A stretch of 32,451 nt of DNA from Thermoanaerobaculia bacterium (GTDB lineage Bacteria; Acidobacteriota; Thermoanaerobaculia; UBA5066): positions 1 to 32,451 of the forward strand of contig JAJVIN010000021.1 in NCBI GenBank assembly GCA_022071945.1, given 5' to 3'. Made by a program: the position numbers and the translations under genes. The notes under the pieces are model-generated. The model saw only the letters and a list, made by a program, of their open reading frames with translations. It was not told the DNA's origin and did not search any database. Below, one piece after another: positions 10,970 to 30,504 of this stretch (position 1 is the first letter of the stretch; each line of letters starts with the position of its first letter).

Positions 10970-10998
10970 TTGACCCGCCCGGGTGAGGGTGTTACTTT
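10970..10998 (+). promoter_or_regulatory. Candidate sigma70-type promoter upstream of the pilT-like gene (TTGACC-N17-TACTTT)
   Basis: TTGACC at 10970-10975, a 17-nt spacer, then TACTTT at 10993-10998. It sits ~36 nt upstream of the pilT ATG, and a GGGAGAAGAG ribosome-binding site follows. Confidence 0.3.
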
Positions 10999-11033
10999 GC
11001 CGATTAAGCGCGCAGACAGGGAGAAGAGTGGCG

Positions 11034-12532: not shown

Positions 12533-14383
12533 GTGGGTAGACGACGCTCCCTCTGGCTGGCGCTGGCCGTGGCCGGCGTTCTCCTCGTCACTCTCGCTTT
12601 CGCCAGCTGGCGATGGCTCGATCGCAAGGTCACCCGCCTGGCGTCCCCCGAGTCTCACCGGGAAAAGTCCACCAGGGAGCTCCTGTTCCGCCCGCTCGCC
12701 CGTTCAGAGAAGGGCGCCAGCCTTCTCGGCGATGGCTCCGTCCGAACCCTGGCCAGACTCGGTGACGCGCTCTGGACCGGAGGAGGCAGCGGCCTCGATT
12801 CGGGACTTTCCCCGCTCACGCCGGCCGATGGTCTCGCCTCGCTCCGGGTCGCCTCGATCGCGGTCTTCAAGGAGTCCCTCGTCTACGCCCTGGAAGCGGG
12901 CGGCTGGGGCAGGGTCACCGTAGACGGACCCGAGGAGGCCTCGTCGGGCTTCGGGACCCTTCATGTCCGCCACATGGCGGCCTCTCCCGCCAGCGAGCTC
13001 TACCTGGCCGCGGCGGAGGGTCTTTTCCGCGTCTCGCCCGGCGGTCAGGAAATCGAACGGCTCGATGCGAGCTCCTTTCGCGCCGTCCTCCTGTTGCCCT
13101 CGGGGGGGCTCCTGGCCGGCGGAGAGACGGGCCTCGCGCTCTTTCCCGCCGCCTCCTCCGTCCGGGAGGAAGTACCGGCGCCGGACCCCTGGATCGAGGG
13201 CCTCGCGTTCGACGGAGCGAACGTCTGGGTCTCGACCGCTTCAGGCATCGCGCTCGGGGCCCTGGACGGCAGAAGCATCGTACTGAATCCGCACCCCAAG
13301 GGCTTCGGCCTCAGCTCCGGAGTCCTCTGGAGAGGGCGCTGGATCGCTCCGTCGGGCCCGGGCGAGAGACACCTGACGGCGCTTGCGGCCGGCGGAGACA
13401 GCGCGGAGATCGCGATCCCCGAGCCCTTCCCTCGCGTTCTGGCCTGGGCGGGACAGCTCTTTGGAGATGGCGATTCCGGCCTTCACGTCTACCTGGAAGA
13501 CGGGACCTGGCAGCTCGTGAAAAAGCGGCCGTCGCGTTCCCTCCCCTGGCCGCACGTCAACGCTCTGGCCGTCCGGGAAACGGATGCCTGGCTCGGGTTC
13601 TTCGACGGACCCATCGTCCGTTTTCGCAACCTCGACTCGATCGAAGCTCCCGGGTCCAGGGAACCGTGGGGAGTCAATGCCCTTCTCTCGGCGGGCGGCG
13701 CGGTCTATGCCGCGACCCTCCGTGGCGCGTACCGCATCGCGGGCGGAGCCTTCGAAAAACTGCCAGGAGGCGGCGCCGCGTTCTCCGTGGCAGAGAGCCC
13801 CGAGGGAGTGATCTTCGGCTTCGGCGAGGGAGTCCTGTTCCCGGGGCCCCGTCTCCTTTCGGCTTTCCACGGACTGCCGGGCAACCAGGCCTACGCGCTC
13901 GCGGCCGGCAGCCGTCCCGGAACCCTCTGGGTCGGAACTCCGAGCGGGCTCGGCCGCATCGAGGGGCGCCGGATCACGTTGAGGGTGGCGCGGGGAGAGG
14001 GCCGGCTTCCTCACCCCTGGATCACGGCGCTCGTCGAGGCCGATGAGGGGCTCTGGATCGCGACCTATGGAGGCGGGATTTGCCGGGTCGCGGAATCAGG
14101 CGGCGGACTCGCCTGGACTTCGTTCCCCGAGACGGCGGGCCTCAAGGTCAACCCGGGCGCCCTCGTGCGCACACCCTCTGGAGATGTGATCTTCGGCACG
14201 CAAGGCCAGGGCCTCTGGGGCCTACAGTCCGGGACACAGCAGTTCCAGCGGCTTAGAATTCCCTTGCCGTCCACAAATGTCTTCAGCTTGGCGCTCTACC
14301 CGGCGACCTCTCCGGCCACACTCCTGGCCGGAGCGGACGAGGGCTTGGCGTTTCTCCCGCTCGCTGCGCTCTTCAAACCCTGA
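12533..14383 (+). CDS. Membrane-anchored beta-propeller-like repeat protein (hypothetical)
   Basis: 616 aa with an N-terminal signal anchor 'LWLALAVAGVLLVTLAFASW'. Gly/Trp-rich repeats such as 'GLWIATYGGGICRV', 'GTLWVGTPSGLGRI', 'ANVWVSTASGIALG' resemble Reg_prop/PQQ-type propeller blades. Starts 30 nt after pilT and ends 10 nt before the next gene. Confidence 0.55.
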   Translation: MGRRRSLWLALAVAGVLLVTLAFASWRWLDRKVTRLASPESHREKSTRELLFRPLARSEKGASLLGDGSVRTLARLGDALWTGGGSGLDSGLSPLTPADGLASLRVASIAVFKESLVYALEAGGWGRVTVDGPEEASSGFGTLHVRHMAASPASELYLAAAEGLFRVSPGGQEIERLDASSFRAVLLLPSGGLLAGGETGLALFPAASSVREEVPAPDPWIEGLAFDGANVWVSTASGIALGALDGRSIVLNPHPKGFGLSSGVLWRGRWIAPSGPGERHLTALAAGGDSAEIAIPEPFPRVLAWAGQLFGDGDSGLHVYLEDGTWQLVKKRPSRSLPWPHVNALAVRETDAWLGFFDGPIVRFRNLDSIEAPGSREPWGVNALLSAGGAVYAATLRGAYRIAGGAFEKLPGGGAAFSVAESPEGVIFGFGEGVLFPGPRLLSAFHGLPGNQAYALAAGSRPGTLWVGTPSGLGRIEGRRITLRVARGEGRLPHPWITALVEADEGLWIATYGGGICRVAESGGGLAWTSFPETAGLKVNPGALVRTPSGDVIFGTQGQGLWGLQSGTQQFQRLRIPLPSTNVFSLALYPATSPATLLAGADEGLAFLPLAALFKP

Positions 14384-14393
14384 TGGAGATTCT

Positions 14394-16757
14394 ATGAACC
14401 GGCGTCTCGTGGCGCTCCTCGGCGCAAGCCTGATCGTCCTGGCCTCCCCCCTCCTTGCCCAGTCCGGCCTTCTGGTCCCGGCATCCAGCGGGGTGCCTGA
14501 CCCGAAAGTCCTCTCTCTGAGAGAGATGTCGATCGATGCGGGCATCGCGCGAGGGTTCGTGAGGGTCAACGTGAAGCAGGTCTACGAAAACCACACGGCG
14601 CTGATCCAGGAGGGAATCTGGCGGTTCCAGCTCCCCCCTTCCGGGCTCGTCGGCGACTTCGCGGTCTGGGATGGCCTCGTGAGAATTCCCGGCGTGATCC
14701 TCGAGAAGCGGCGCGCCCGGGCCATCTACAAGGAGTTGACGACGCAGCGGATCGATCCAGGCCTCTTGCAGCAGGGCGAGGAAGAAGACACCGAGCCATC
14801 GGGTTCGGGGCGGCCGGCCGACAGGCCGTCGGGCGGAGCGGGATTTTCCGTCCGCGTCGCCCCGATCCCGGCCTGGGGCACGAAACGTCTGGAGATGCAG
14901 TATCAGTACGAGGTGCCATGGGTCGACGGCTCGGGCGAGTTCCGGCTGGCCATCCGTCCCCGCGAAGGTGACGGGATGGTCGCCGGGACACTCGACGTCA
15001 GGGTGGTTCTCCTCGACGGCGAGTTCCTCCCCTTTTCGAAAAACAGCCTGGAGCTTTCAGTCAAGGGAAACGAGGCCTCTTTCTCGGGCCGGAACGTGAA
15101 GCTCGCGCGGGACGTGATCGTGAGGTTCAAGCCGAAGGTTCCCTCCGGGATGACGTTCTCGGCCTTCCGGAATCCGGCGGGGTCGCTCCCCGACGGTCTC
15201 TCCCTGGCCCCGTGGGAACGCCCCGCCGACGTCCCTCCGGAAAAGGACGGCTTCTTCCTCGTCGAGTACTTCCCATCGAAAGGCGGCTCCACGGTCGCGC
15301 GCGCCCAGGGCAAGGCTCCCGAAGAAAAACGCGACCCGATCTCGGTTGCCATCCTCTTCGACACGTCCCTCTCCCATCGCTGGGCAGGACTGGAATCCGG
15401 ATACAACTTCCTCAGCCGCGTCCTGGATTCCCTCAAGGGCGATGACCGTTTTGCCCTGGTGCCCTTCGATCTCGACCCCGCATCCGGCGTCGCGCTTGCT
15501 CGCCTCTCGCCCGAGAGCCGGAATCAGGCCTTGACCGCGCTTCGCGCCCGCGAGCTCGGGCCGGGCACAGACTTCGCCAAGGCCCTGAAGGCCGCCGCTG
15601 CCCTTCTGGGAAGCTCTCCCAATGCCCGCATCCTGGTGATCACGGACGGGTACGGGCTCGCGAAGAACCTCAAGGATGCGGCCGGAAGGCTGCCGGTGTA
15701 TTCCATTCTGACCGGTGAGGAACGCCGCGAGGCCTTCACGGTGGCGTCCGAGCAGAGCCTTCATCTGGCCTCCGCCAGCGAAGCCGACGAGACCCTCTTC
15801 CTGCGTGAGCTCGTGGCGCCCGCCCGAACAACTCAGAAGGCAACGCCGAAGGCTGTCAGCGCGGAGGTTCCCGTCGTCACATCGGGGGCCGCGAACCCCA
15901 GGGTGAGAGACGTCTACCCCGTCATGAAGCAGCCTCCGGTGCCCGGTTCCCTCTCGGGATGGGTCGGCCGCTACGAGGCGCCGGCGGCCAGCGTCACGGT
16001 TTCCCTCCGGGAGATCCCCGATCAGAAGACCGTCACGAGCTTTCCCGAATCCGCGCTCGAGGCCCGGGATCTCCCGAGGCGCTGGGCCAAGGCACGGGTC
16101 GACCACCTGCTCGCCTTGATCGAGCTCGAGGGGGAAAAGCGGGAGTGGATCGAGGAGATCATCGAGCTCTCCCGCCGGTACAAATTCGTCACCCCCTACA
16201 CGGCATTCCTGGCAGCCCCCCGATCGCTTCTGAGGCCGCGCCGGATCCAGCCCGGAGACCCCGTCATCCGGGTCGAGGCCGAAGAGGGCACGCGAGCCGT
16301 GACAGCCCTGCTTCCGTTCGGAAAAGCCCTCACCCTGACGAGGCGTCCGGGAACGCAGCTGTGGGAAGGCCGGTTCCTTGTCCCCGAGGGGACCAAAGAC
16401 GGTCCCATGTCCGTACGGCTCCTTCTGAGGGACGTATCGGGAAAGACGATCACAGAAACGAAGCGAGTCGTCATCGACGGGACCCCCCCCAGCATCCGTC
16501 CCGACCCTCCCCGCTCGATCTTGCCGGGGCGCCCCGCCGTCGTGGCCGCGCGGGCCGACTCGGATGTCATCTTCCTGTCCGTGAGGCTCGGCTCCGGCCC
16601 CCCGGTTCCCCTCAGGTGGAATCCCGAGACCAAGCGCTCGGAAGCGGAGATTCTCGTCCCGCCCTCGGCCGCCTCCGTGGAAGAGCTCTTCTTCGAGGCT
16701 TCTGACGGGGCCGGGAACCATGGCTTTGCCCGGACGCGGGTGGAGGTGCTGCAGTGA
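14394..16757 (+). CDS. Secreted VIT (vault/inter-alpha-trypsin) + von Willebrand factor A domain protein
   Basis: Signal peptide 'MNRRLVALLGASLIVLASPLLAQS', with a GGAG ribosome-binding site 6 nt upstream of the ATG at 14394. VIT-like N-domain ('VKQVYENHTALIQEGIWRFQLPPSGLVGDFAVWDGLVRIPGVILEKRRARAIYKEL'). vWA domain with MIDAS motif 'ILFDTSLSH'. The ITIH-like C-terminal motif 'KFVTPYTAFLA' is present. The ORF is open from 14277. Confidence 0.8.
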   Translation: MNRRLVALLGASLIVLASPLLAQSGLLVPASSGVPDPKVLSLREMSIDAGIARGFVRVNVKQVYENHTALIQEGIWRFQLPPSGLVGDFAVWDGLVRIPGVILEKRRARAIYKELTTQRIDPGLLQQGEEEDTEPSGSGRPADRPSGGAGFSVRVAPIPAWGTKRLEMQYQYEVPWVDGSGEFRLAIRPREGDGMVAGTLDVRVVLLDGEFLPFSKNSLELSVKGNEASFSGRNVKLARDVIVRFKPKVPSGMTFSAFRNPAGSLPDGLSLAPWERPADVPPEKDGFFLVEYFPSKGGSTVARAQGKAPEEKRDPISVAILFDTSLSHRWAGLESGYNFLSRVLDSLKGDDRFALVPFDLDPASGVALARLSPESRNQALTALRARELGPGTDFAKALKAAAALLGSSPNARILVITDGYGLAKNLKDAAGRLPVYSILTGEERREAFTVASEQSLHLASASEADETLFLRELVAPARTTQKATPKAVSAEVPVVTSGAANPRVRDVYPVMKQPPVPGSLSGWVGRYEAPAASVTVSLREIPDQKTVTSFPESALEARDLPRRWAKARVDHLLALIELEGEKREWIEEIIELSRRYKFVTPYTAFLAAPRSLLRPRRIQPGDPVIRVEAEEGTRAVTALLPFGKALTLTRRPGTQLWEGRFLVPEGTKDGPMSVRLLLRDVSGKTITETKRVVIDGTPPSIRPDPPRSILPGRPAVVAARADSDVIFLSVRLGSGPPVPLRWNPETKRSEAEILVPPSAASVEELFFEASDGAGNHGFARTRVEVLQ

Positions 16758-19700
16758 AAGCGACTCGAGGACGGCGGCGATTCCCGCGGCGTCGAATCCT
16801 GGCCCTTTTGCCCGCGAGTCTCTCGCTGCTGGCGCTGGGCGCCCTCGCGAGCGCCGGGTCCTACATCCCTTTCGAGGACCTCACGGACAAGGACGGCCTG
16901 GCGGCGGTCCTGAGGCGGACCGCCAGAATCGAGGGGCGGATCGTCTACTACCCTGCACCTCCGGCCGAGGCTGAGCCCGAGCTCTCGCGGCGGTCGGCCG
17001 CAGCGGACGCGGAGGCCCAGGCGGCCACCCGGCACCTCGCCGCGACACGGCGGGAGCTGGGCAACCTCAAGGGAGCCCAAGAAGCCATGACCCGGTGGGC
17101 CACGGCAAGCGCCAGCGAAGCTGCTGAAAGGTGGGCGGAGACGGCCCGATGGGCGCGTTCTTACCGGCTCTTCCCGTTCGCCTTCGAAGCGGCCGAGAAG
17201 GCCTTGCAGGCTCCGGCGGGGGCCGGAAGCGAGGCTGGCAGAAAGAAGCTCGCGAGTGACAGGATCGACTGGGCGCAAGCCTTCCCCGAGCACGCGAGCG
17301 CGGAGAAGCTCGTCGAGGCCCGCGCGAAGCTCTTCCCGGAAGATCAGGCCTTTTTCAACGCGTGGATCCAGTCCCTCGAGAAGTCGAACCGGATCAAGGA
17401 CGCCGAGGAGGCGCTCAGGAAGAACACCAGCCTCTCGGAAGAGAACCGGGCCGTCCTGGTGGCGCGTCTGAAGAAGAAGTCAGGCGACGGCACGGGAGCC
17501 CTGTCTGTCCTGGAGACCTTCATCAGCCGGTCGGGCCGGGCCCCACAGCAGGCCACATCCACCCTGTTTTCCGAGGTCGTTCTGGCCACCGCGCCGTCCA
17601 GAGTGGACGAGTGGCGGGCCACCCTGGACAAGAAGTTCGACGCGACCGCCCTCCTGTTGCTCGAGGTCTTTTTCAAGGGCAAGGGGCGTGGAGACCTGGC
17701 GCTTCAGCTCCTTCAGCAGTCCGATGCCCGGCACCTGGGCAGCGTCGACCGCAAGGGAGCGATGCTCCTCGCCCAGCTCTACGAGGGTCTCAACGCCGTT
17801 CCCGAGGCGTTCCGGACGCGTCTGGCGTCATCGAGAAACGCGAACGAGAAAGAGAAGCTCGACGATCTTGCGGCCCTCGCTTCCCTTGCGCTGAAGGCCG
17901 GTTCGCGTCCCCTCGCCTGGGGTCAGTTCAACGAGGAACCCTACCGGTGGGCGGCCCGGATCGACGTGACCCCCGGCTTCTTCACGGGGGGCCTCTCGCT
18001 CCTCTTGACGGGATTCGACGGAAAGGCCTCTCTTTCCGAGCTCGAGAATCAGCGGCTGCCCGACAGGACCTTCCGGACGGCCCAGGCCCTCATCGCGGAG
18101 CTCGAGAAGAGGTCTCCCACACACCCGAGCCTGCCGGCGCTCGCCCTTGGCACGATGGAAAAGCTCGTCCAGCGCAGCGAGGGTTCCAAGGCGCTCGAAC
18201 TTCTGCCCAAGGCGGACAAAGGTACGGCGGAAATCAGGGCTGCCGCGCGCAAGGTCGCTCTCCTGGCGATCCGCCAGACGAAAGCGCCCCTGGATCGCGA
18301 AGCCGCTCTGTGGAAGGAGCGGCTCGCGCTTCTTGCACCTGACGGATCGAAGGTCACCTTCCAGGCCTACCGGAGCGCCCGCTCCGAGGAGGACGAGAAC
18401 GACGAGGCGGACCCGCCAGGAGCACCCGCGGAGTCCAGGGGAATGGCTTCTCCCGAGTACCAGTGGGTCTTGCAGGAGGCGCTCTCGCGGCTCTCGAGCC
18501 GGGACAAGTCGAACGCGGCCTCTCTCGCTCTCCTCCTCAACGAGATGGACCGGCTGCCGAAAGCCGAGCCCCTCTGGACGTACGCCTGCAACGAGATCGA
18601 GCGCTGGACCCTCGACTCCACGCTCGAGAGCCGTTACAAGCACGCCCTGAAGACGTTCGAGGGAACCGAGTGGTGGAAGCGCGTCTTCCGCTGGTACGTC
18701 CGTCAGAAGCGGGGGGCCGAGCAGCGCGCGCTCGCCGACGAGGTCGTGGCGACGTTTCGGACGAGCGAGATCTTCCGGCGGGATCCAGGATTCCAGGGAG
18801 CCATTTCACTCGAAGGCCAGCCGAATCCCTTCATCACGATCAGCGACTACATCCGGCTGAAGGCACTCGAGCGATTCCCGGCCTCGCCACAGGTCCTCAG
18901 GGAGGCCGAGTCGCGCCTGATCTCCCGCTCCATCTACCAGGGGCTCTCGACGAGTGACCGGGCGGCGCGTCAGGGCTACGGGGTCGTGGAAGACGCGCTC
19001 CTCGAACTGCGCCGGGATGCCGTGCTCTTCATCGAGCCCGCGAGGCGCGCCGCGTTTCTCGACCGCCTGATGAAGGAGAACCGGCTCGAAGCCTTCCTGA
19101 AGGCTCTGGAGGCGAGCCCCGAGAAGACTCCCGTGGAGCTTCGGTTCCTGTCGGATGGCTGGAGCCGGCTCTCGAAGTTCGAACTGGCGGCGGGCTACGC
19201 CCTGAAGCTCTCGGAGCTCTACCCGGCCGCCCCGGACGCGGCCTCGGATGCCATCACGCTCCACCGCTCGATCTCGGGACTCTCCCCCGCCATGGCGGAG
19301 AAAGTCCTGCCGATGGTGAGACGGCTGGCCGCGACAGGCGCCGACACCACCGCCCTGTGGACGAACGCGGGCGAGATGTGGCAGGACCTCGACCAGCCCG
19401 GACGCGCCTCGGAGGCTTTCGAAAGGATCCTCGAACCAGGACCCAGGGAGCCGTCCCGGATCCTCGACCTCGCCACGGTCTACTGGGACTACGGCCGGAT
19501 GGACGAGGCCGAAAGGGTGCTCCGGGACGGGAGAAAGCGCATCTCGGAGCCCAGCCTGCACGCCTTCGAGGCCGGAGTGCTGCGCGAAGAGAAAAAGGAC
19601 ATCGACGGCGCCTTGACCGAGTACCTCGCCGCCCTGGACGGCGAGGGAGAGGCATCGGAAGAGAGCAGCTGGGACCCTCACGACTACCGCGCCCTCCGCC

Positions 19701-22700
19701 GCCTCACCCAGCTTCTGGGCCGGCAGCGGGTTCTGGTCGAGCTCGAGAAGCGAGTTCGAAATCTGAAGCCCGGTGTGGCCGAGGACGAGAAGCGCTTGCT
19801 GCCGCTGCTCTATCTGCTCAACTCCGAGCCGGAGACCGTGGAGGACTCCTGGGACGACTGGATCGACATGCCGAATGACCCTGTCGGGCGGGAACAGAGG
19901 GCGCAGAAGCGCGAGAAGGCGACGCCCGCGCAGGAACGCGGCATGACCCAGATCGGTGCGCTTCTTTCCCAGAAGACCCTCGAGATGATTCCCTTGGCCA
20001 CGAACCGCGCTTTCCTGGCGTCCTTGCGTGGATTCCAGACCCAGCTCCTCGACCCGAGGTGGACGAAGGACCCGTTGGCGTCCTCGCGCCTGCAGAGCCT
20101 CCTTCTGGAAAGGGAAGCCGCCCTCATGCCGACGGAGGAAGAGCGGATCCAGAAAGAGCTCGCCCGGATCGCGTTCTTCATCGATCACAACCAGCAGCAG
20201 GAGGCACGCCAGGCGCTCACTCGCCTCGACGCCCGCGTGAACTCGCTCTCGGAGGGCGGCCTGAAGATCAGGAGCCAGGCAAGCCTGGCCCAGATGACCG
20301 AGCGGCTCGGTGGCGATGCCGCCACCGCCTTCCGCTCGTTGACGGACCGGTACCCCTGGTCCCTCGGCGTCATTGAAGACCGGATCGCCTTCTGCTACCG
20401 GAACAAACGGACCTCCGAGGCCCTCGACGTGCTCGAGAAGGCCGCCGTCTCGGCCGCCTCCGGACACAAGGAGAAGCTCTCGGAAAGGCTCGTGCGGGAA
20501 TCGCTCGAGAATGGCGACCTGCCGCGAGCCAAGAAGGCCCTCACGGCGCTTCTCGGCATGAACCTGGACCCGGCCTTGAGGGTGTCGGCGGTCGGCCTGA
20601 TGGGACGCCTGTCGCTTCGCGAGAACCCCTCGTTTGACGCCATTACCTTCGCCAAGACCGAAGCCGCGAAGCTGCCGGAAGAGGTCCGGCCCGATCTGTG
20701 GGCCGCCGTCGCCCGGGGCGCGCGCCAGGAAGGCCGGGGCAAGGCCAGCGTCGACCTCTGGATCGAGGCCATCAACCGTCGGACGCTTCGTGAGTGGCTG
20801 GTGGAAGCGAGCCAGACGGCTACCCAGTTCCAGCTCGAGGCAATCCTCTCGAAGTTCTTCGAGAGCCAGAGAGTGAGGAGCCCGCGCGACGTGAGGTGGG
20901 CCGTCGCCGTCCGCGAGCTGCGAACCCAGGCCGGCGATCTCGCCGGGGCCATCCAGGCCGCGAAGGAGGTTTGCGGGATCGCTCCCGAGAAGGAGATCTA
21001 CTGGAGGGACGCGGTCGACCTCTTCTCGCGCGCCGGCCAGTTCGTCGAGGCGGCGACCTTCCTCGAGGGCTGGGCGTCGAGCCGCAAGGGCGACGAGCGC
21101 ACCGCCTCGTGGCGGGCCGATCTGCTGCTTCGAGGCGGACAAACCCAGAAAGCCATGGAGGTCGAGCGTGCCGCGCTCGAGGCGTGGAAGAAGGAGAGCA
21201 GCCAGAGCCAGAACACCGGGGACGTCGAGTCCGAGCTCGCGGAGCGGACGGCCCGGGTCGCGCGCCGGTTCCTCGAAAGGAACCGCCCCTCGGCAGCCTG
21301 GGCCTTCGCGGTCCCGGGAGGAAAGCTCTCGCGCTCGGCGGAGATTCCGCTGGACCACACATTCAGGACCGACGTGGCCGTCCGCACCGGCAACCTTCTC
21401 GCCCTATTGAAGGCCAACGAGAACGACAGCGATTTCCTCGAGCAGAGCGCCGAGACCATCTCTCAATCGGCCCGAGGCGAGGATCTCGCGGCTCTGCAGG
21501 AATACCTCCTGTCAAAGGTGTTCCCACAGACCGGACCTCCGAGCGACGCGGCCCTGAAGAAGTTCGACCAGTTCGCGCGGAGTTGCGGCCTCTACCGGTG
21601 GGACGAGGCGCTGGCCCGCAATCTGGCGGCCCGGACGCCCGGTCCATGGGGCACGAACCCGCCCGTGGGATTCCTCAGGCGGATCTCTCCGACAGTCAGC
21701 AATCCCACCCGCCTGGCCAAGCCAAACCTCGAGTACCTGTGGGTTCAGCACCTGATCGCCTCAGACGATGTCCCGGCGCTCCGGCAGGCGATCGCACCGC
21801 GCCTGTCCGCGCTCGATTCCTTCGTTTCGACGGGTACGTCCGCCGCTCCGGCGGCTACGTCGCTCTTCCCCGTCGAGGCGCTCGTCAGGATCGCTCAGGC
21901 GCCCGACGGCGCACCAGCTGGGGCTGGAGCGCCAGCTGGGGCTGGCGCGCCCGCTTCGGCAGGCGCGGAGACCCGGGCGATGCTCTCGCGCTGGTTCAAG
22001 ACAAAGGAAACCTATCAGCGTCTTGCCCAGGCCGTCGGTTCGAGGTGGGATCTGACTTCCCTTCTCAAGCTGACGGACGAGGAGACGGTGACGGCGTGGC
22101 TTCTGCACGCCGCTCCCGGCCGCAAAAGCCTCGACCCCGTCGACGAGAAGCGCTGGAGGGTCGAGGTCGACACGGCCCGCGCCCTTGCCTCCCTCATCGA
22201 GGGCAAGGCGGGCGCGCTCCAGAGTCCAGAGATCGCGAGGCTGAGAGGCCCGAGAACGGTCGGAGACGTCATGACGACCGACCCGAAATGGGTCTGGCCG
22301 GACTTTCAGCCTCGCCCCACCGACCACGCGGATGAAGCCATCTACGGCGCCGGTGTGGACCGCGGCCGCACACCCGGCCGCCTCTGGGGAGGCCGGCCCG
22401 GCGATGCCTGGTACGTCCTCGAGTCGCTCGCGCGATACCGGGAGAAGGACCCGAAGGCCCCTTATGTCCCCCTCGAGGCCGCGGCCCGGGGGAACGAAGC
22501 CGATCGAACGCTCCTCGGAGTCCGGACCTCGGAAGGGCTCCAGAACCTTTCCCTCGCCTTGGCTCTCGACGAGGCGTACTTCGCCGACCTCTCCCGCGCC
22601 GACCGGCTCGAGCGCCGGATGCGGCTCCTCATCGCCAACGGCGGGGAGGGCAAGGCAAAGGCGGAAGAACTGCTCAAGAAGGAAGTCGTCAGGCTGCAAG

Positions 22701-24457
22701 GAACGGCAAGTGAGACCCTCTTCCGTCAGTGGGAAGGAGCCTCCGCTCGCCTTTCGCTCTCGGCTCCGGGAGACTTCCTCGATCCGGCAAAGCCGGTTTC
22801 CGCCCCGCTCCTCGCCTACCTTCTGGACGTCTCCGACCTCAAAAAGTACTCCAACCTCAAACCGGCGAATCACGCGGATCTCAAGACCGCTTTGGCGAAT
22901 CGCTGGTACGGCGCCCAGAGCCTGATGTCTCGTGAGGAGCTCGACTACTACCTCAGGGAGCTGTGGGCAACGGGCAGCGGGACGTTCCCGGCCCGGGCGG
23001 TGAAAAACATCCAGAAGATGTGGCCGGAGGCCATCGAGTACCTCTCGGGCGTGCCGGCCCTGCACAGGCAGGCGGCTCTCTCGGCCGTGAAATCTCTTCC
23101 CGATCCGAAACCCGTCGCTTCCGTCGTCGATCAGTCGGGAGACCGGCGCGAGACGGCCCAGCTCCTCCTTTTCCGCGCCGAGCTCGCGTCCTCGCAGGTG
23201 GAGGCGGCAATGGCTCGCGCGCGGCTCATGACGGGCGATACCGAGGCCGCCGCCCTGACTCTTGCGCCCGCTGTTCTCTCCTCGGAAGCATCGGAGGAGC
23301 ACGCCGAGGCCGGGGAAGAAGGCGGCGGCGAACCGGCGGACTCCGAGACGGAATCGGCTTCTTCTCGCCTCAGGCGGCTCCTGACAATCGCCAGAGCGGT
23401 GAAGAACCCGGCCGGAATCCAGGAAACCGAGGCCTACCTTCGCGACCTCGTGAAGAAGCGCCTCGAGAATCGGGTCCTGGCCTCTGGAGATGCATGGATC
23501 CTGGCAGTCGACCTGGCAACGCCCGCGACGATTCGGTCCACCTCGGAGGCCCTGGAGAGAGCCTGGATTCGGGGCGAGTACTTCTCGTTCGCCGACAAGG
23601 CCGGGCTCGTCGGGGCCCTATTCCCCAAGGATCCCGCCGCCGCGCGGACGTGGTTCACGCGAATGGAACGGGCCTCCGACCTAGCGACCATGCGAAAACG
23701 CTCGGAGCTCCTCGTGACGCTCGGGCGCCCGGAGGATGCCGCACGCGAGTGGATCGAGACGCGGACGACGCTTCGGCAGAGTCCACAGATCGACCTGCAG
23801 TCGTTCGACGCCTGGCGACGCCTTCCGGCCGCAAAGGCAGGCACCTCCGCTCCGGCCGCCCCCGATGCCTGGCAAAAGGCCGCGGCATTCTGGAAGAAAC
23901 CGGCTGCGGAGCTGGACCCCGCATGGGGCGAGTCCTTTGCGGCACACCTGGCCAAGTCGCCCTACGACAGGCTCGCCGCGCGAAACGTCCTGCGGAGCCT
24001 GGCCCCGGCACGGGCCGATTACGTGGAACCGGCCGTTGCGGCCCTGAACTCGTCCGAAGACGTGGCGGCCTGGCGAATCGCCCGGTCCGTCCGCCCTCGC
24101 TCCGCCGTCGCGGCCCGCAACGCCCTGCCGTCTCAAACTGTCGACGTGAACTCGTTGAGGACGCGCCGGTTCCTCAAGACCGAGATCGAGGGGCTGCTTT
24201 CCGACCTCGCACGGATCGGGGCAGCCAATGAGCTCGACGGTCTCGTCTCGAAGGCCACCGCGGGTCTCGACGTCATCAAGCCCGGAGCGTCCAGGGCCTT
24301 GCAGCCCGAGCTCACGGCCCTCAAACAGTCCCTGACGGTGTCGCGCGGGGCGGCCTCGCAGGCGTTCCTCAGGGGCGGCCAGTATCTCCCGATCCGTCCA
24401 CGCGACCTCGACTGGGCCCTCTACGCACGGGTCCTCAACCAGGAGAAGGTGCCGTGA
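16754..24457 (+). CDS. Giant (2567 aa) secreted alpha-helical repeat protein of unknown function
   Basis: Single uninterrupted 7.7-kb ORF with GC3-rich codon usage. GTG start overlaps the upstream stop (GTGA). Signal peptide 'RILALLPASLSLLALGALASAGS'. Composition is Ala/Leu/Arg/Glu-rich throughout, which suggests TPR/HEAT-like helical repeats. No catalytic motif was recognised. Contains an internal APAGAG mini-repeat. Confidence 0.8.
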   Translation: MKATRGRRRFPRRRILALLPASLSLLALGALASAGSYIPFEDLTDKDGLAAVLRRTARIEGRIVYYPAPPAEAEPELSRRSAAADAEAQAATRHLAATRRELGNLKGAQEAMTRWATASASEAAERWAETARWARSYRLFPFAFEAAEKALQAPAGAGSEAGRKKLASDRIDWAQAFPEHASAEKLVEARAKLFPEDQAFFNAWIQSLEKSNRIKDAEEALRKNTSLSEENRAVLVARLKKKSGDGTGALSVLETFISRSGRAPQQATSTLFSEVVLATAPSRVDEWRATLDKKFDATALLLLEVFFKGKGRGDLALQLLQQSDARHLGSVDRKGAMLLAQLYEGLNAVPEAFRTRLASSRNANEKEKLDDLAALASLALKAGSRPLAWGQFNEEPYRWAARIDVTPGFFTGGLSLLLTGFDGKASLSELENQRLPDRTFRTAQALIAELEKRSPTHPSLPALALGTMEKLVQRSEGSKALELLPKADKGTAEIRAAARKVALLAIRQTKAPLDREAALWKERLALLAPDGSKVTFQAYRSARSEEDENDEADPPGAPAESRGMASPEYQWVLQEALSRLSSRDKSNAASLALLLNEMDRLPKAEPLWTYACNEIERWTLDSTLESRYKHALKTFEGTEWWKRVFRWYVRQKRGAEQRALADEVVATFRTSEIFRRDPGFQGAISLEGQPNPFITISDYIRLKALERFPASPQVLREAESRLISRSIYQGLSTSDRAARQGYGVVEDALLELRRDAVLFIEPARRAAFLDRLMKENRLEAFLKALEASPEKTPVELRFLSDGWSRLSKFELAAGYALKLSELYPAAPDAASDAITLHRSISGLSPAMAEKVLPMVRRLAATGADTTALWTNAGEMWQDLDQPGRASEAFERILEPGPREPSRILDLATVYWDYGRMDEAERVLRDGRKRISEPSLHAFEAGVLREEKKDIDGALTEYLAALDGEGEASEESSWDPHDYRALRRLTQLLGRQRVLVELEKRVRNLKPGVAEDEKRLLPLLYLLNSEPETVEDSWDDWIDMPNDPVGREQRAQKREKATPAQERGMTQIGALLSQKTLEMIPLATNRAFLASLRGFQTQLLDPRWTKDPLASSRLQSLLLEREAALMPTEEERIQKELARIAFFIDHNQQQEARQALTRLDARVNSLSEGGLKIRSQASLAQMTERLGGDAATAFRSLTDRYPWSLGVIEDRIAFCYRNKRTSEALDVLEKAAVSAASGHKEKLSERLVRESLENGDLPRAKKALTALLGMNLDPALRVSAVGLMGRLSLRENPSFDAITFAKTEAAKLPEEVRPDLWAAVARGARQEGRGKASVDLWIEAINRRTLREWLVEASQTATQFQLEAILSKFFESQRVRSPRDVRWAVAVRELRTQAGDLAGAIQAAKEVCGIAPEKEIYWRDAVDLFSRAGQFVEAATFLEGWASSRKGDERTASWRADLLLRGGQTQKAMEVERAALEAWKKESSQSQNTGDVESELAERTARVARRFLERNRPSAAWAFAVPGGKLSRSAEIPLDHTFRTDVAVRTGNLLALLKANENDSDFLEQSAETISQSARGEDLAALQEYLLSKVFPQTGPPSDAALKKFDQFARSCGLYRWDEALARNLAARTPGPWGTNPPVGFLRRISPTVSNPTRLAKPNLEYLWVQHLIASDDVPALRQAIAPRLSALDSFVSTGTSAAPAATSLFPVEALVRIAQAPDGAPAGAGAPAGAGAPASAGAETRAMLSRWFKTKETYQRLAQAVGSRWDLTSLLKLTDEETVTAWLLHAAPGRKSLDPVDEKRWRVEVDTARALASLIEGKAGALQSPEIARLRGPRTVGDVMTTDPKWVWPDFQPRPTDHADEAIYGAGVDRGRTPGRLWGGRPGDAWYVLESLARYREKDPKAPYVPLEAAARGNEADRTLLGVRTSEGLQNLSLALALDEAYFADLSRADRLERRMRLLIANGGEGKAKAEELLKKEVVRLQGTASETLFRQWEGASARLSLSAPGDFLDPAKPVSAPLLAYLLDVSDLKKYSNLKPANHADLKTALANRWYGAQSLMSREELDYYLRELWATGSGTFPARAVKNIQKMWPEAIEYLSGVPALHRQAALSAVKSLPDPKPVASVVDQSGDRRETAQLLLFRAELASSQVEAAMARARLMTGDTEAAALTLAPAVLSSEASEEHAEAGEEGGGEPADSETESASSRLRRLLTIARAVKNPAGIQETEAYLRDLVKKRLENRVLASGDAWILAVDLATPATIRSTSEALERAWIRGEYFSFADKAGLVGALFPKDPAAARTWFTRMERASDLATMRKRSELLVTLGRPEDAAREWIETRTTLRQSPQIDLQSFDAWRRLPAAKAGTSAPAAPDAWQKAAAFWKKPAAELDPAWGESFAAHLAKSPYDRLAARNVLRSLAPARADYVEPAVAALNSSEDVAAWRIARSVRPRSAVAARNALPSQTVDVNSLRTRRFLKTEIEGLLSDLARIGAANELDGLVSKATAGLDVIKPGASRALQPELTALKQSLTVSRGAASQAFLRGGQYLPIRPRDLDWALYARVLNQEKVP
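21911..21958 (+). repeat. Short in-frame tandem repeat (about 2.5 copies of an 18-bp unit 'gcgccagctggggctgga'), which encodes APAGAGAPAGAGAP inside the giant ORF
   Basis: Direct read of 21901-21960. Confidence 0.5.
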
Positions 24458-26082
24458 TGAAGAACATCGTTCTGGCCTTCTCGGCCGTCGTCATCTTCGC
24501 CGCTCCCTCGTCCGCTCGGGCCGTCGAGCCGGCCGCGGCGCCGGCGGCCGCCCTCGGCAAGCTCCCTCTGCCAGACGGTCCGGTGGTCTTCCTCGTCGAG
24601 GACGTGCCGGCCTTCGAGAAGGCCCTCTCTGGAGGCATCAGAAAGGCCGTCACGGGGAAACTCCCCGAAAGCGATCCCGTCGGAGCCGCCTGGCGACGCA
24701 CACGGGTCGGGAGCAAGCTCGACTCTCAGTGGCAGCTCTTCGCCAGTGACATTCCGCTGACCTGGTCGCAGATCTCGGCGCTTAAGCCCTCGGCCTTCGG
24801 GATGACCCTGCTGGCCGCGGGGGATCTCGAGGCCGTCCTTGTGGTCCGGACAGCGCTGGCTCAATTGCCGGTGCCGCTCCCGAATGGGACTCAGAAGACC
24901 TACAAGGGGTACGCCTACCAGCTCGTCACTCGAGGAGCCGGCGACGACAGGAACCTCGAACGCCGGATGGGACTCGCCTGGTGCCGCGCGGGCCGCCACC
25001 TCTTCCTGGCGACGAGCGAGAGATCGCTTCTCGCCGCCCTCGATGTTCAAGCCGGACAGGGCGGGTTCTCTTCGATGGTGGGCGGGTTCGCCCAGCTGCG
25101 CCTGAACCTCGATGCCCTCAGGAAGGACCTCTACTTCAAGAGGGAGTTTCTCTTCGACGAGGGAACGCAGGGGCCCGCGACAGGGATTCTCCTGGCCGGC
25201 CTGGAACTCGAGGGAAACCGCCTCGTCGAGGTGCGAAAAGGCACGGGAGAGGGCCGGGCGCCGGGAGCCACGTGGCCCGTCGCTCAGCGAAACGTCCGGG
25301 CGGCCGGGTGGGAGCCAGACGGCAAGAGACTCTGGAGCGCGTTCTGGCGCGCCGTTCTCGATCCGGTGCCCAATCCCTCGGACAGGCCCGTCGCCGCCGT
25401 GAAGGTCTTGCCGTCATTCTCGGAGGCCGCGGAGAGCCGGTACCTCGTCGATCTGAGGCAGCCGGTGTCTGCCGGCACGGACGCTGGCGGCGAGGGCGAG
25501 ATCCCCGCGTGGAAAGACCTCATCAAGACCGCGGCCCCCGATGGCTTTGGCTGGGAGGTGACCCGGGACGGATACCCGAGATTCGCCCTGCGCCAGCCGC
25601 CAGCCTTCGACAAGGGATTCGTGGACCTTTCGATCAAAACGCTCTCGCGCCGCTCGGGCATGACGCCGAAAGATGACGGCGGAACCTTGAGGGTCGGACC
25701 CGGTCTCGCTGGACTCGCCTACAAAAGGAAGGGCGGGTTCCTTTGGGTTGGCCTGCGGGGAGAGGACTTGACGGATTGCCCGGAGCCCTCCGGGACGCCG
25801 GACCTCGTCCGGTGGGGATACCTGAATCTCTCCGACGCCTCCCTCGAGCGAGAGGCCTGGCGCCGGGCGGAAGGGGCTTTCTCACCGGAGTACACGCGTC
25901 CCTTCTCTGACAGGATCCTCGGCCTCCTGGGCTGGGCTCCCTCGCTCGAGACCATTTCTTCTGAACGAAAGCGCTCTGGCGACACGTTCACGGAACGTGT
26001 GACGTTCACGTTCTCGGAGACGGCTGGGGCGAAAAAGCCCTCGTCTCCTCCGGCACCCGCCCCCGCGGCCCCGAAGAAGTAG
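24454..26082 (+). CDS. Secreted hypothetical protein (542 aa), translationally coupled to the giant ORF
   Basis: Start (GTG 24454 or ATG 24457) overlaps the giant ORF's stop (gtgATGA). Signal peptide 'MKNIVLAFSAVVIFAAPSSARA'. Pro/Ala/Lys C-terminal tail. No recognised motif. Confidence 0.65.
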   Translation: MMKNIVLAFSAVVIFAAPSSARAVEPAAAPAAALGKLPLPDGPVVFLVEDVPAFEKALSGGIRKAVTGKLPESDPVGAAWRRTRVGSKLDSQWQLFASDIPLTWSQISALKPSAFGMTLLAAGDLEAVLVVRTALAQLPVPLPNGTQKTYKGYAYQLVTRGAGDDRNLERRMGLAWCRAGRHLFLATSERSLLAALDVQAGQGGFSSMVGGFAQLRLNLDALRKDLYFKREFLFDEGTQGPATGILLAGLELEGNRLVEVRKGTGEGRAPGATWPVAQRNVRAAGWEPDGKRLWSAFWRAVLDPVPNPSDRPVAAVKVLPSFSEAAESRYLVDLRQPVSAGTDAGGEGEIPAWKDLIKTAAPDGFGWEVTRDGYPRFALRQPPAFDKGFVDLSIKTLSRRSGMTPKDDGGTLRVGPGLAGLAYKRKGGFLWVGLRGEDLTDCPEPSGTPDLVRWGYLNLSDASLEREAWRRAEGAFSPEYTRPFSDRILGLLGWAPSLETISSERKRSGDTFTERVTFTFSETAGAKKPSSPPAPAPAAPKK

Positions 26083-26084
26083 GT

Positions 26085-27833
26085 GTGATCCGGGGCGCAC
26101 CCTGGGTTCTGGCGGCGCTGCTCCTTCTGGGCAGCGCCCCGGAGGAGGGTCCGGACCGCTGGCAGGTCTGGACTCTGGTGAACGGGACCCTGTCGCCCGG
26201 ATCGCAGACTCCGTCCGCGCCGCGACCCGTGGGCTCGCTCCAGAAACCGTGGGTGCTCAAGGCCTGGGCGGCGGAACACGCCGGCGAGAAGTCGCCGGAA
26301 TATTTCTGCTCCGGAGCTCCCGCGTGCTGGCGAGCGGGCGGTCACGGCTGGCTGGGACTCAGGAGGGCGATTGCCGAGTCGTGCAATGCGTACTTCATCC
26401 GGCTCGCGCGATCGACCTCCGGGGGAGGCCTCGTCTCGGCCTTCACCGAGGCGGGGTTCCTTTTGGAGGGGATTCCAGGTCCCGAGGCCGCGATCGGCCT
26501 TCAGGCACCGAGTGGCGTGATTCGAATCTCTCCTCCGGAGCTCCTGCGCGCCTTCCGACAGCTGATCCGGGAGCCGTGGACGTCGGGAGAGACCCACCGG
26601 CTCGAGCTTCTACGGGGGCTCGAGGAGGCGGGCCGCTCGGGCACCGCTTCGAGTCCGGGACTCCGCGGACTCCTCGTCAAGACCGGCACGGTGAGCCGGG
26701 GCGGAAACGTCCTGGAGGATCTGACCGGGTGGGTCCTCGCGGCGACCCCCGATGGAGAGGAGCTCGCGCTCGGCAAGCTCGAGAAAGCCACAGGACGTCT
26801 CGCCGCCCTCGAGCTCGGGCAGCGGGCCGTGCTGAAGCCACTCGCGCCGCAGGGCAACGAGACCCCTGCTGACCCGGCCGAGAACGTGGCGGTCTGGGTG
26901 TTTTCCGCACTGGCGCCGGAAGAGGTCCATGCCACGAATCTCTCCACGGCTCCCGTTCTGGCCGAGGGGGCGTCCGGCCCGCGGTGGCTGGGCCAGGGAG
27001 GCACGACCTCGATCGAGCCAGGGGACAATCTTGCCGGGGCGGACTGGGAGCTCACCGTTCAGCCGTACGGACTGAAGCGGCGTTTCAAGGGGAGCCTGGA
27101 AATGCTGAGAGGGCGAGGCGCCGAACCGGGGCGGCTGGTGCTTCGGACTCCCGTCCGGAGCTACGTAGAGGGCGTCATCAGGGCGGAGCTCTCGAGTGGA
27201 AGCATCCAGCGGCAGAGAGACCTTGCCGCGGCGATTCTCCGGTTTCTCAGGCGCGGGGATCGGCACCCCCCGGCGTCGGTCTGCGACCGAAATCACTGCG
27301 CCTGGTTCCTCGGCGAGGGCCCGGAGGTCCTCTGGAAAGACCCGCGCCGGCCCGTCCATCAGGAGAGCCGGGCGGAACCTCTCAGGATCGATGACGAGAC
27401 CTTCCGTTCGATCATCGCCAGGTCGAAAACGGCTGGTCCGAGTCTCTGGACGGATCACTGCGGGGGGCGGGCCCTTTCCGAGTGGGAAGTCTGGGGCCGG
27501 GGCTCCCGGCAGACGTGGCCCTGTCCCAGGCACCGCTCGCCCACGAAATCCTGGTCCCGCCCGTTCCCTTCCGAGGCACTTGCGGAGCTTCTCGGCGGGC
27601 CTGTTCGGGATCTGAGGTGCTCGGTCACGTCGGGCTACCGCCGAACGGTCATCGAGCTCGAATCGGGCCGGCGGCTCGAGCTGTCGTTCGACGAGCTCCA
27701 CCGCAGGCTTGCATCACGATTTGGCTGGGGCTCGCTTCCCTCTCCGCCGGAGCGGGCGTCGAGGAAGGGCGACACGTGGGTGCTGTCCGGACACGGCGCG
27801 GGTCATCGGGTCGGGCTCTGCCTCTCCGATTGA
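26085..27833 (+). CDS. Secreted fusion protein: N-terminal class D beta-lactamase/PBP-like penicillin-binding domain plus C-terminal SpoIID/LytB (lytic transglycosylase / amidase-enhancer) domain
   Basis: Signal peptide 'MIRGAPWVLAALLLLGSAPE'. Active-site triad with class-D-like spacing: S51-L-Q-K54 (SxxK), S99-C-N (SxN), K199-T-G (KTG). The OXA/BlaR-like segment 'IRISPPELLRAFRQLI' is present. SpoIID hallmarks follow: 'SYVEGVIRAEL', 'VCDRNHCAWFLG', 'LWTDHCGGRALSEWEVWG', 'GHGAGHRVGLC'. Starts 3 nt after the previous stop. Confidence 0.8.
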   Translation: MIRGAPWVLAALLLLGSAPEEGPDRWQVWTLVNGTLSPGSQTPSAPRPVGSLQKPWVLKAWAAEHAGEKSPEYFCSGAPACWRAGGHGWLGLRRAIAESCNAYFIRLARSTSGGGLVSAFTEAGFLLEGIPGPEAAIGLQAPSGVIRISPPELLRAFRQLIREPWTSGETHRLELLRGLEEAGRSGTASSPGLRGLLVKTGTVSRGGNVLEDLTGWVLAATPDGEELALGKLEKATGRLAALELGQRAVLKPLAPQGNETPADPAENVAVWVFSALAPEEVHATNLSTAPVLAEGASGPRWLGQGGTTSIEPGDNLAGADWELTVQPYGLKRRFKGSLEMLRGRGAEPGRLVLRTPVRSYVEGVIRAELSSGSIQRQRDLAAAILRFLRRGDRHPPASVCDRNHCAWFLGEGPEVLWKDPRRPVHQESRAEPLRIDDETFRSIIARSKTAGPSLWTDHCGGRALSEWEVWGRGSRQTWPCPRHRSPTKSWSRPFPSEALAELLGGPVRDLRCSVTSGYRRTVIELESGRRLELSFDELHRRLASRFGWGSLPSPPERASRKGDTWVLSGHGAGHRVGLCLSD

Positions 27834-29801: not shown

Positions 29802-30419
29802 TCAGTATTTCCGCATCAGACCGACGACGATGCCCTGCACTTCCACTTCGTCGGCCCGCGCCAGGATCGGCTGCATCGCCTGGTTCGAAGGCTGGAGACG
29901 GACCCGGTTGTCCGCCTCGCGATGGAACCGCTTCAGGGTCGCTTCCCCCTTGACGAGCGCGGCCACGAGCTCGCCGTTCTCGGCGGTCGCCCGGCGCTGC
30001 AGGACGACGAGATCACCGTCCTGGATTCCCTCGTCGATCATCGACTCTCCCCGGACCTTCAGAACGAAGTTCTCTCCCCGGCGCGTCAGCATCTCGGGGA
30101 CGAGGACCAGCTCCGTTCCGGGAAGGACCTCTATCGGACTGCCGGCAGCGATCCTGCCCAGAAGTGGCAGCTGCAGGAGCCCCTTCTCCGCACCCGCACC
30201 TTCGCCGCTGACGAGAAGGGACCGCCGCTTGTTCTTCTCCCTGACGAGAATCCCTTTATCCATCAGCAGCCGAATGTGCTTCTGCAGCGTCCCGAACGAC
30301 GAGTAGCCGAAGTTCTGGCAGATCTCGCGCTGGGTCGGCGAGACGCCCTTTCGGCGGCGATAGTCGCGGATGAAGTCCAGGATTTCTTTCTGACGCGGAG
30401 TCAGCGCGATCTCAGACAT
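29802..30419 (-). CDS. lexA: LexA SOS repressor
   Basis: 'MSEIALTPRQKEILDFIRDYRRRKGVSPTQREICQNFGYSS..' is the wHTH domain. 'LPLLGRIAAGSPIE' carries the Ala-Gly cleavage site. 'VRGESMIDEGIQDGDLVVL' is the S24 Ser region, and 'GIVVGLMRKY' the C-terminus. The start is taken at the M of MSEIALT; the ORF is open to 30488. Confidence 0.9.
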   Translation of the reverse strand: MSEIALTPRQKEILDFIRDYRRRKGVSPTQREICQNFGYSSFGTLQKHIRLLMDKGILVREKNKRRSLLVSGEGAGAEKGLLQLPLLGRIAAGSPIEVLPGTELVLVPEMLTRRGENFVLKVRGESMIDEGIQDGDLVVLQRRATAENGELVAALVKGEATLKRFHREADNRVRLQPSNQAMQPILARADEVEVQGIVVGLMRKY

Positions 30420-30475
30420 GGCGGGATCCCCCCGCGAGGGGTCGAGGAAAGCGGGCGTGTTCCATGATCGCCCCC

Positions 30476-30504
30476 ATACTAGGCGCAAGGAAGGCGTATA
30501 TCAA
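30476..30504 (-). promoter_or_regulatory. lexA promoter: TTGATA-N17-TAGTAT (minus strand)
   Basis: The minus strand reads '...TTGATAtacgccttccttgcgccTAGTATgggggcgatcatggaacacg...'. The -35 is at 30504-30499 and the -10 at 30481-30476. This leaves a ~50-nt leader before the lexA ATG. Confidence 0.45.

Follow-up and report, generated by a model that had tools for sequence, protein, structure and literature searches.

A divergent penicillin-binding-fold/SpoIID fusion protein encoded by the last gene of a conserved Acidobacteriota operon

What kind of protein is encoded by the last gene of a five-gene string in a Thermoanaerobaculia genome, and what could it do to the cell wall? The gene lies in the 32,451-nt stretch of DNA that we analysed as a whole and call the window (contig JAJVIN010000021.1 of assembly GCA_022071945.1, positions 1 to 32,451 of the forward strand), and its product is a protein of 582 aa. 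A sequence-only reading had proposed that this protein joins a penicillin-binding domain, resembling class D beta-lactamases and BlaR sensors, to a SpoIID/LytB peptidoglycan-remodelling domain, in an architecture not previously described. We find that both folds are present in the one chain, that the N-terminal domain is of the type found in class B penicillin-binding proteins (bPBPs, a class of the PBPs), and that the gene is linked to four conserved partners encoding proteins with hydrophobic leaders.

Two domains identified through an intermediate family

Standard profile tools barely see the two domains of the 582-aa protein, and for that reason its family has gone unannotated, members of the subfamily being entered at NCBI as ‘hypothetical protein’. 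In Pfam the protein has no match at E<=1, PF08486 included. Among NCBIfam models, TIGR03423 (PBP2/MrdA) gave a partial, sub-threshold match to residues 50-121 (E=1.7e-6; 26.9 bits, cut-off 455), and TIGR02669 (SpoIID_LytB) gave a marginal one to residues 534-579 (E=0.022; 14.7 bits, cut-off 83.3). In a set of 11 family members the PBP signal was weak but recurrent (TIGR03423 in 10/11 and PF00905 in 7/11, at best 4.5e-5), and the SpoIID signal was weak and sporadic (TIGR02669 in 4/11, PF08486 in 1/11). A family profile run against PDB sequences found PBP2/MrdA (3.8e-5) and the stand-alone transpeptidase domain of Legionella FtsI4 (residues 50-216). The PBP2 matches were partial, and no SpoIID structure in PDB was matched by either the single sequence or the family profile, so that the SpoIID link had to be made through an intermediate family of fusion proteins.

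From 1.84 billion representatives, an exhaustive profile search retrieved about 25 full-length relatives, many stand-alone copies of the N-terminal module of about 250 aa, and proteins of 800-850 aa that were matched over both halves and that exceed the Pfam gathering thresholds for PF00905 and PF08486. A further search seeded with one of the longer fusions (P0103) added dozens more PF00905+PF08486 proteins, mostly from metagenome-assembled genomes (MAGs) of Acidobacteriota, which carry names such as ‘SpoIID/LytB domain-containing protein’ or ‘stage II sporulation protein D’ at NCBI and JGI. Both domains are present in all 17 of the longer fusions that were aligned (best E-values 2.2e-43 and 2.2e-22). 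An hhalign comparison of the target family with these 17 fusions gave a probability of 100% and E=8.4e-44 over 499 columns, spanning residues 24-582, which places the protein, as judged from profile alignment, within an existing lineage of two-domain proteins, as a divergent member; a combined profile matches SpoIID structures at 2.4e-43. Membership of PF00905 and PF08486 is thus reached through intermediates only, namely through the alignment to fusions that pass both thresholds. The Pfam scans proposed along with the sequence-only reading are blank for the protein itself and positive for its longer relatives, and a rejection of the two-domain assignment on the direct scan alone would have been wrong, since the intermediates confirm both domains. 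As to the supposed novelty of the architecture, a library search of the literature on SpoIID combined with a penicillin-binding or transpeptidase domain, on Acidobacteria and on PF08486 found no relevant paper, but dozens of Acidobacteriota proteins are already automatically annotated with both domains.

The longer fusions (for example MCS6884252.1, P0103 and P0159-P0235) are homologous to the target over its full length, with the same domain order, and share with it a beta-sandwich spacer and the extra cysteines described below. They differ in being 640-950 aa long, in being recognised by Pfam, in having a complete SpoIID C-terminus and in carrying an extension of about 200 aa with an HExxH motif, all of which the target lacks. 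In alignment A2 the C-terminal ~200 aa of P0103 and P0159-P0235 show the consensus ‘TxxHExLH...PxWxREGL’, a zinc-metallopeptidase-like pattern of HExxH plus Glu, to which no Pfam model fits; if this region is real, the longer fusions would contain three wall-acting modules. We found no experimental study of them. Other fusion partners of SpoIID domains, in a set comprising P0236, P0240, P0243, P0246, P0247, P0253 and P0252, are SPOR (PF05036), LGFP repeats (PF08310) and an MreB-like actin domain, the last in a single JGI protein; SpoIID is therefore repeatedly joined to wall-targeting or cytoskeletal modules.

The window has a G+C content of 62-70%, and numerous spurious open reading frames (ORFs) overlap the gene in other frames. 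Homologues exist only for the 582-aa frame, with identities from 98% down to 31%, and none were found for the overlapping frames. The GTG start is the earliest possible in frame and lies 2 bases past the stop of the upstream gene.

Conserved catalytic residues in both modules

The N-terminal ~230 residues are a minimal bPBP-type acyl-serine domain, without a membrane anchor and without a pedestal domain (Table 1). The three motifs named in the sequence-only reading, SLQK (51-54), SCN (99-101) and KTGT (199-202), are present in that order, 48 and 100 residues apart, and S51, K54, S99, C100, N101 and K199 to T202 (K199, T200, G201, T202) are invariant among the 23 full-length homologues, 34-56% identical to the target, over which invariance was scored. 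The module has the transpeptidase fold in three dimensions; from superpositions, the motif residues would be juxtaposed in one pocket. A disulfide between the invariant C75 and C81 is a conjecture.

The proposed kinship with class D enzymes and BlaR holds for shape and fails for sequence. The module is compact, about 250 residues, and can be superposed on OXA and sensor structures, and the string likened to OXA/BlaR (GVIRISPPELLRAFRQLIRE) is indeed found at residues 144-163. Its identity to bPBPs is 17-23%, against 10-16% to sensors and OXA enzymes, and its closest relatives in both sequence and structure are the cross-linking bPBPs PBP2/MrdA, PBP3 and PBPA. No class D or BlaR model was matched in NCBIfam at E<=10, and no OXA, BlaR or MecR chain in PDB was matched by the family profile at E<=10; the stand-alone relatives of the module likewise have PBP2 as their best match, with no class D/BlaR model at E<=0.001. 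For a transducer of the BlaR type, we found neither a hydrophobic segment past the leader nor a protease domain in the 582-aa protein.

The assignment of a SpoIID domain to the C-terminal half was borne out. The strings that had suggested it are found at residues 400-410 (CDRNHCAWFLG), 458-471 (HCGGRALSEWEVWG) and 569-579 (GHGAGHRVGLC), and, beyond the link to the PF08486 fusions, E368 stands in register with the catalytic E101 of Clostridioides difficile SpoIID (PDB 5txu), as do H394, C400, H404 and C405 with its zinc ligands, so that a zinc site is predicted. In C. difficile, both SpoIID activity and sporulation depend on E101 and C140, and zinc is bound 1:1 at the site (PMC6221140); E88 of Bacillus subtilis SpoIID is the essential equivalent of E101 (cited in PMC6635528). 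The invariant residues of this module are E368, R386, H394, C400, D401, H404, C405, C459-G461, G571, G573-R575, G577 and C579. A first full-length model was mediocre (predicted local distance difference test, pLDDT, 74; predicted template modelling score, pTM, 0.45) and its Foldseek list was swamped by PBPs, and for these reasons the C-terminal half was modelled again alone with a deeper alignment; the half so modelled, from an alignment that included true SpoIID sequences, has the SpoIID fold. At the position of the segment from H458 to H483, where the first model had low confidence, classical SpoIID has ‘STSSG’ or ‘STSNG’. C459, C480 and C579 are invariant and are also Cys in the longer fusions, but neither the B. 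anthracis nor the C. difficile SpoIID structure has them. For these extra cysteines, and for C75/C81, roles in a second metal site or in disulfides are conceivable.

Conservation is equally strong in the two modules, with 33 and 29 invariant columns out of 226 each; the linker has 0. This pattern, read from the alignment, argues for two working sites and against a decayed domain.

The protein ends 3 residues past GHRVGLC. An assembly artefact or frameshift behind this short C-terminus was ruled out: family members stop at the same place, 3-14 residues past GLC, and the gene for the convergent M61 peptidase starts 22 nt further on, so the truncation is genuine.

As judged from its leader, the protein is probably exported to the periplasm. 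In some homologues the leader is much shorter; several of these (P0004-P0007, and L001 at 9842-10030) start with ‘MILAALLVFRL’, shorter than a typical signal peptide would be. We considered whether such N-termini are miscalled starts and think this unlikely, because the in-frame sequence upstream is off-frame junk from the gene for p542, the 542-aa protein encoded next upstream; the short starts are probably correct. In another homologue (P0010, 670 aa), long Arg/Pro/Ser-rich stretches break up otherwise conserved blocks, and look like frameshift errors of metagenome assembly more than like a real variant.

Table 1. Features of the fusion protein, its operon and the neighbouring genes (positions in the window; residue numbers refer to the 582-aa protein)
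Feature	Position	Strand	Basis
Complete gene for the 582-aa PBP-fold/SpoIID fusion, at the end of the operon	26085..27833	+	ORF list, homologues, end-to-end profile match
Probable Sec signal peptide (MIRGAPWVLAALLLLGSA, followed by PEE)	26085..26138	+	Read from sequence; helix at residues 5-16 in model
Compact penicillin-binding (transpeptidase-fold) module, residues ~25-250	26157..26834	+	
Motif 1, S51-L-Q-K54, nucleophile Ser and general-base Lys	26235..26246	+	S51, K54 invariant; aligned to S28/K31 of Pfam-positive fusions
Cys pair C75...C81, then W82, G86-H87-G88 (‘CW..GHG’, PBP2-like)	26307..26327	+	Invariant; aligned to PBP2 ‘W..GHG’
Motif 2, S99-C-N101 (SxN)	26379..26387	+	Invariant; aligned to PBP2 ‘SCD.YF’ and S83/N85 of fusions
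Motif 3, K199-T-G-T202, beta3 strand	26679..26690	+	Invariant; in model strand 197-204; aligned to K215-T218 of fusions
Variable Pro/Ala-rich interdomain linker, residues 251-264	26835..26876	+	pLDDT <50 at residues 252-264; no invariant column; majority-residue frequency 0.29
Beta-sandwich spacer domain, residues 265-356, also in longer fusion relatives	26877..27152	+	
SpoIID-type catalytic domain, residues 357-582, ending right past the GHxVGLC motif	27153..27830	+	
E368, equivalent of SpoIID catalytic Glu (C. difficile E101, B. subtilis E88)	27186..27188	+	Alignment to 5txu; invariant over 33 and 23 sequences
H394-x5-C400-D-x2-H404-C405, matching C. difficile SpoIID zinc site H134/C140/H145/C146	27264..27299	+	Combined-profile alignment to 5txu; all four ligands invariant
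H458-C459-G-G461 to C480-P-R-H483, conserved, extra Cys/His relative to classical SpoIID	27456..27533	+	C459, G460, G461, C480 invariant; H458, H483 nearly
G569-H-G-A-G-H574-R-V-G-L-C579, counterpart of SpoIID ‘G.GHGVGMSQ’	27789..27821	+	Aligned to ‘GrGrGHgvGLcq’ and ‘GHGVGMSQ’ of 4rwr/5txu; weak TIGR02669 match
Four upstream operon partners together	12533..26082	+	Pfam; 4-bp overlaps/2-nt gap; leaders; gene order in 36 loci
Beta-propeller protein, N-terminal membrane anchor	12533-14383	+	Pfam
VIT-VWA protein	14277-16757	+	Pfam; listed ORF overlaps beta-propeller gene by 107 nt
2,567-aa helical-repeat giant	16754-24457	+	Weak TPR matches; Arg-rich leader; GAPAGAGAPAGAGAPASAGA low-complexity stretch
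p542, 542 aa	24454-26082	+	No recognised fold; clear signal peptide
PilT/PilU-family type IV pilus retraction ATPase, ~140-aa C-terminal extension	10983-12503	+	406.7 bits against cut-off of 319.1
M61 glycyl aminopeptidase with PDZ domain, convergent on the fusion gene, 22 nt apart	27856-29784	-	
LexA repressor, next after the M61 gene	29802-30488	-	

A conserved operon and its neighbourhood

All five products of the operon have a hydrophobic N-terminal leader, and the last four genes are separated from one another by 4-bp overlaps or a 2-nt gap. Translation of the VIT-VWA protein probably begins at an internal Met (residue 40), ahead of a signal peptide (MNRRLVALLGASLIVLASPLLAQS). The helical-repeat giant is ~2,500-2,580 aa long in every complete locus. 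The gene for p542 is translationally coupled to the fusion gene and conserved in more than 40 loci, and in its product numerous Trp, Arg and Glu positions are invariant. We considered p542 as an amidase or SpoIIP-like partner and found nothing to support this: it had no match in Pfam, NCBIfam or PDB, even when searched as a 17-sequence profile (best E=0.54).

The same five-gene order occurs in Holophagales MAGs whose copy of the fusion protein is only 42-46% identical to the target. With the VIT-VWA protein as a probe we collected 73 loci; the MAGs they come from are labelled Holophagales/Holophagaceae, Thermoanaerobaculia, Vicinamibacteria and other Acidobacteriota. By local tblastn the full string is present in the same order in 36 of these 73, or 36 of the roughly 40 that could be tested; four loci with enough sequence have no detectable start of the fusion gene, and the remaining ones are too short to judge. 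The one distant Pfam-positive fusion examined does not share the operon and lies in an unrelated neighbourhood, which limits the operon link to the target's own subfamily.

The PilT/PilU-family ATPase gene that precedes the operon was considered as a member of the system and set aside: it is probably a bystander, because it adjoins the operon in only ~12 of the 73 loci, these being among the closer ones, sometimes with an insertion of ~2 kb. The M61 and LexA genes are also found near the homologue in locus L003.

Possible roles at the cell wall and relation to known systems

Based on these data we can present a proposal for the function of the protein, to which we would give an even chance: it would be an exported, two-site peptidoglycan-remodelling enzyme, a DD-peptidase combined with a lytic transglycosylase, that opens or reshapes the wall locally for an envelope assembly. 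The PBP module would be a DD-peptidase, either an endo- or a carboxypeptidase, working on D-Ala-D-Ala stems or 4-3 cross-links, a role that we guess at because the module has lost the bPBP anchor and pedestal. The SpoIID module, comprising the C-terminal ~225 residues and presumably stabilised by zinc, would cut the glycan strand beside the site freed by the PBP module, and the flexible linker and beta-sandwich spacer joining the two would let one polypeptide attack both bond types of the same patch of wall. Local opening or reshaping of the wall for that envelope assembly, with no part in bulk wall growth, would be the likely job, because the gene is the translationally coupled last member of a conserved string of five genes for exported proteins. 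Sequential action of this kind has precedents, as SpoIID follows the amidase/endopeptidase SpoIIP during sporulation (PMC6221140), and a SpoIID homologue of Waddlia freed anhydro-muropeptides from sacculi that had been pretreated with a DD-endopeptidase (PMC6635528). A bolder version, in which the two sites act in obligatory sequence, the PBP site acylating or cleaving a cross-link and thereby licensing the glycan cut, and in which the single-chain pair is the dedicated wall-opener of an unrecognised periplasm-spanning Acidobacteriota apparatus (membrane-anchored beta-propeller, VIT-VWA protein, ~2,550-aa helical giant and p542), is speculative and in our view improbable.

Several observations weigh against the proposed two-site enzyme. 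The bPBP domains are transpeptidases, and the hydrolase chemistry is a guess from the loss of anchor and pedestal. Classical SpoIID requires glycan that has been denuded, and none of the operon genes was recognised as coding for an amidase. The C-terminus is incomplete by comparison with SpoIID, lacking the terminal helices ‘Q.GA..MA..G..Y..IL..YY.G’, and classical residues are replaced (HCQ by HCA, ARTY by LRFL, GG.TE by GGRAL); truncation and motif changes, as read from the alignment, could mean an altered or reduced SpoIID activity. In some homologues the leader is too short to make a convincing signal peptide, and the neighbourhood of the one distant fusion examined is, as noted above, unrelated.

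Three other explanations were weighed against the two-site enzyme. The PBP-fold domain could bind, or be acylated by, D-Ala-D-Ala stems, muropeptides or beta-lactams without turnover and so localise or switch the SpoIID module, much as acylation switches the sensor domains of BlaR1/MecR1. We consider this unlikely: neither the family profile (at E<=10) nor the stand-alone relatives gave a class D/BlaR sequence match, identity to sensors and OXA enzymes (10-16%) is below that to bPBPs (17-23%), and the protein has no transmembrane or cytoplasmic effector through which a signal could be relayed. Less probable still, in our estimate, is that the PBP module is a true DD-transpeptidase which patches the wall while the SpoIID module cuts glycan, uniting synthesis and lysis in one chain as in the synthase-hydrolase complexes proposed by Holtje. 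Such multi-enzyme complexes of synthases and lytic transglycosylases have been proposed, with interactions seen by affinity chromatography (reviewed in PMC6403190). The nearest relatives of the module are the cross-linking PBP2/MrdA, PBP3 and PBPA, and every transpeptidase motif is invariant, but the motifs cannot tell a transpeptidase from a DD-peptidase. Moreover, bPBPs couple to SEDS polymerases through their membrane anchor and pedestal domain, and the module has neither, nor does the operon contain a glycosyltransferase or SEDS gene.

The SpoIID half might, finally, not cut glycan at all, being a LytB-like enhancer or a wall-binding scaffold, with the PBP module as the sole active site or with neither module active. 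B. subtilis LytB, a member of the SpoIID family, acts as an amidase enhancer. The truncated C-terminus and the loss of classical residues (the Q after HC, the T-Y of ARTY, the T-E of G.TE and the Q of SQ) fit such a role, as does the lack of a significant Pfam or PDB sequence match to this half from the target's own family; the invariance of the catalytic Glu and of all four predicted zinc ligands, together with the equal conservation of the two modules, instead argues for a working site. We rate this possibility low, although it can be combined with the other readings.

The two-site enzyme that we favour would not overturn current knowledge, since neither the two domains nor multi-domain wall hydrolases, of which there are many, are new. 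Wall-building and wall-cutting enzymes have long been thought to be coupled, and the couplings have been hard to show, with partners that are separate and redundant; a natural, conserved PBP-fold/SpoIID fusion offers a simple test system for the gating of glycan cleavage by a peptide site. With this analysis, domains are assigned to a family that Pfam misses and that goes by ‘hypothetical protein’ at NCBI, and attention is drawn to an unstudied five-gene envelope operon widespread in genomes labelled Holophagales, Thermoanaerobaculia and Vicinamibacteria. A further prediction is that beta-lactams could target this wall-lytic enzyme in the bacteria concerned, which are abundant in soil and sediment.

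Among the closest known systems is SpoIID of the DMP engulfment machine of sporulation (B. subtilis; C. difficile, PDB 5i1t/5txu). The SpoIID homologue of Waddlia chondrophila shows the domain at work outside sporulation in a diderm, remodelling septal peptidoglycan in a non-sporulating bacterium (PMC6635528), and its activity on sacculi loosened by a DD-endopeptidase is the kind of cooperation proposed here (PMC6635528). The Waddlia protein is single-domain, whereas the target has a peptidase-fold partner covalently attached and its gene lies in a dedicated operon. Compared with the bPBP domains (PBP2/MrdA and PBP3/FtsI; Legionella FtsI4, PDB 4ztk), which have ~300-350 residues, the target module has ~230, with 100 residues between SxN and KTG, and lacks a pedestal/dimerisation domain, a transmembrane helix and an adjacent SEDS partner. 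Unlike BlaR1/MecR1 sensors and class D (OXA) enzymes, to which it has no sequence match and is 10-16% identical, it has an SxN motif with PBP2-type flanks and no signalling protease attached. The pairing of a PBP with a lytic transglycosylase, acting on peptide and glycan bonds together, recalls the non-covalent complexes of E. coli (Holtje's multi-enzyme model; MltA, MltB and Slt70 with PBPs; PMC6403190). Those complexes consist of separate proteins with Slt and Mlt folds, whereas in the target one polypeptide carries the pair and the cutter has the SpoIID fold; by analogy, the target may be regarded as conceptually the covalent counterpart of the partnerships between PBPs and lytic transglycosylases that have been proposed in E. 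coli.

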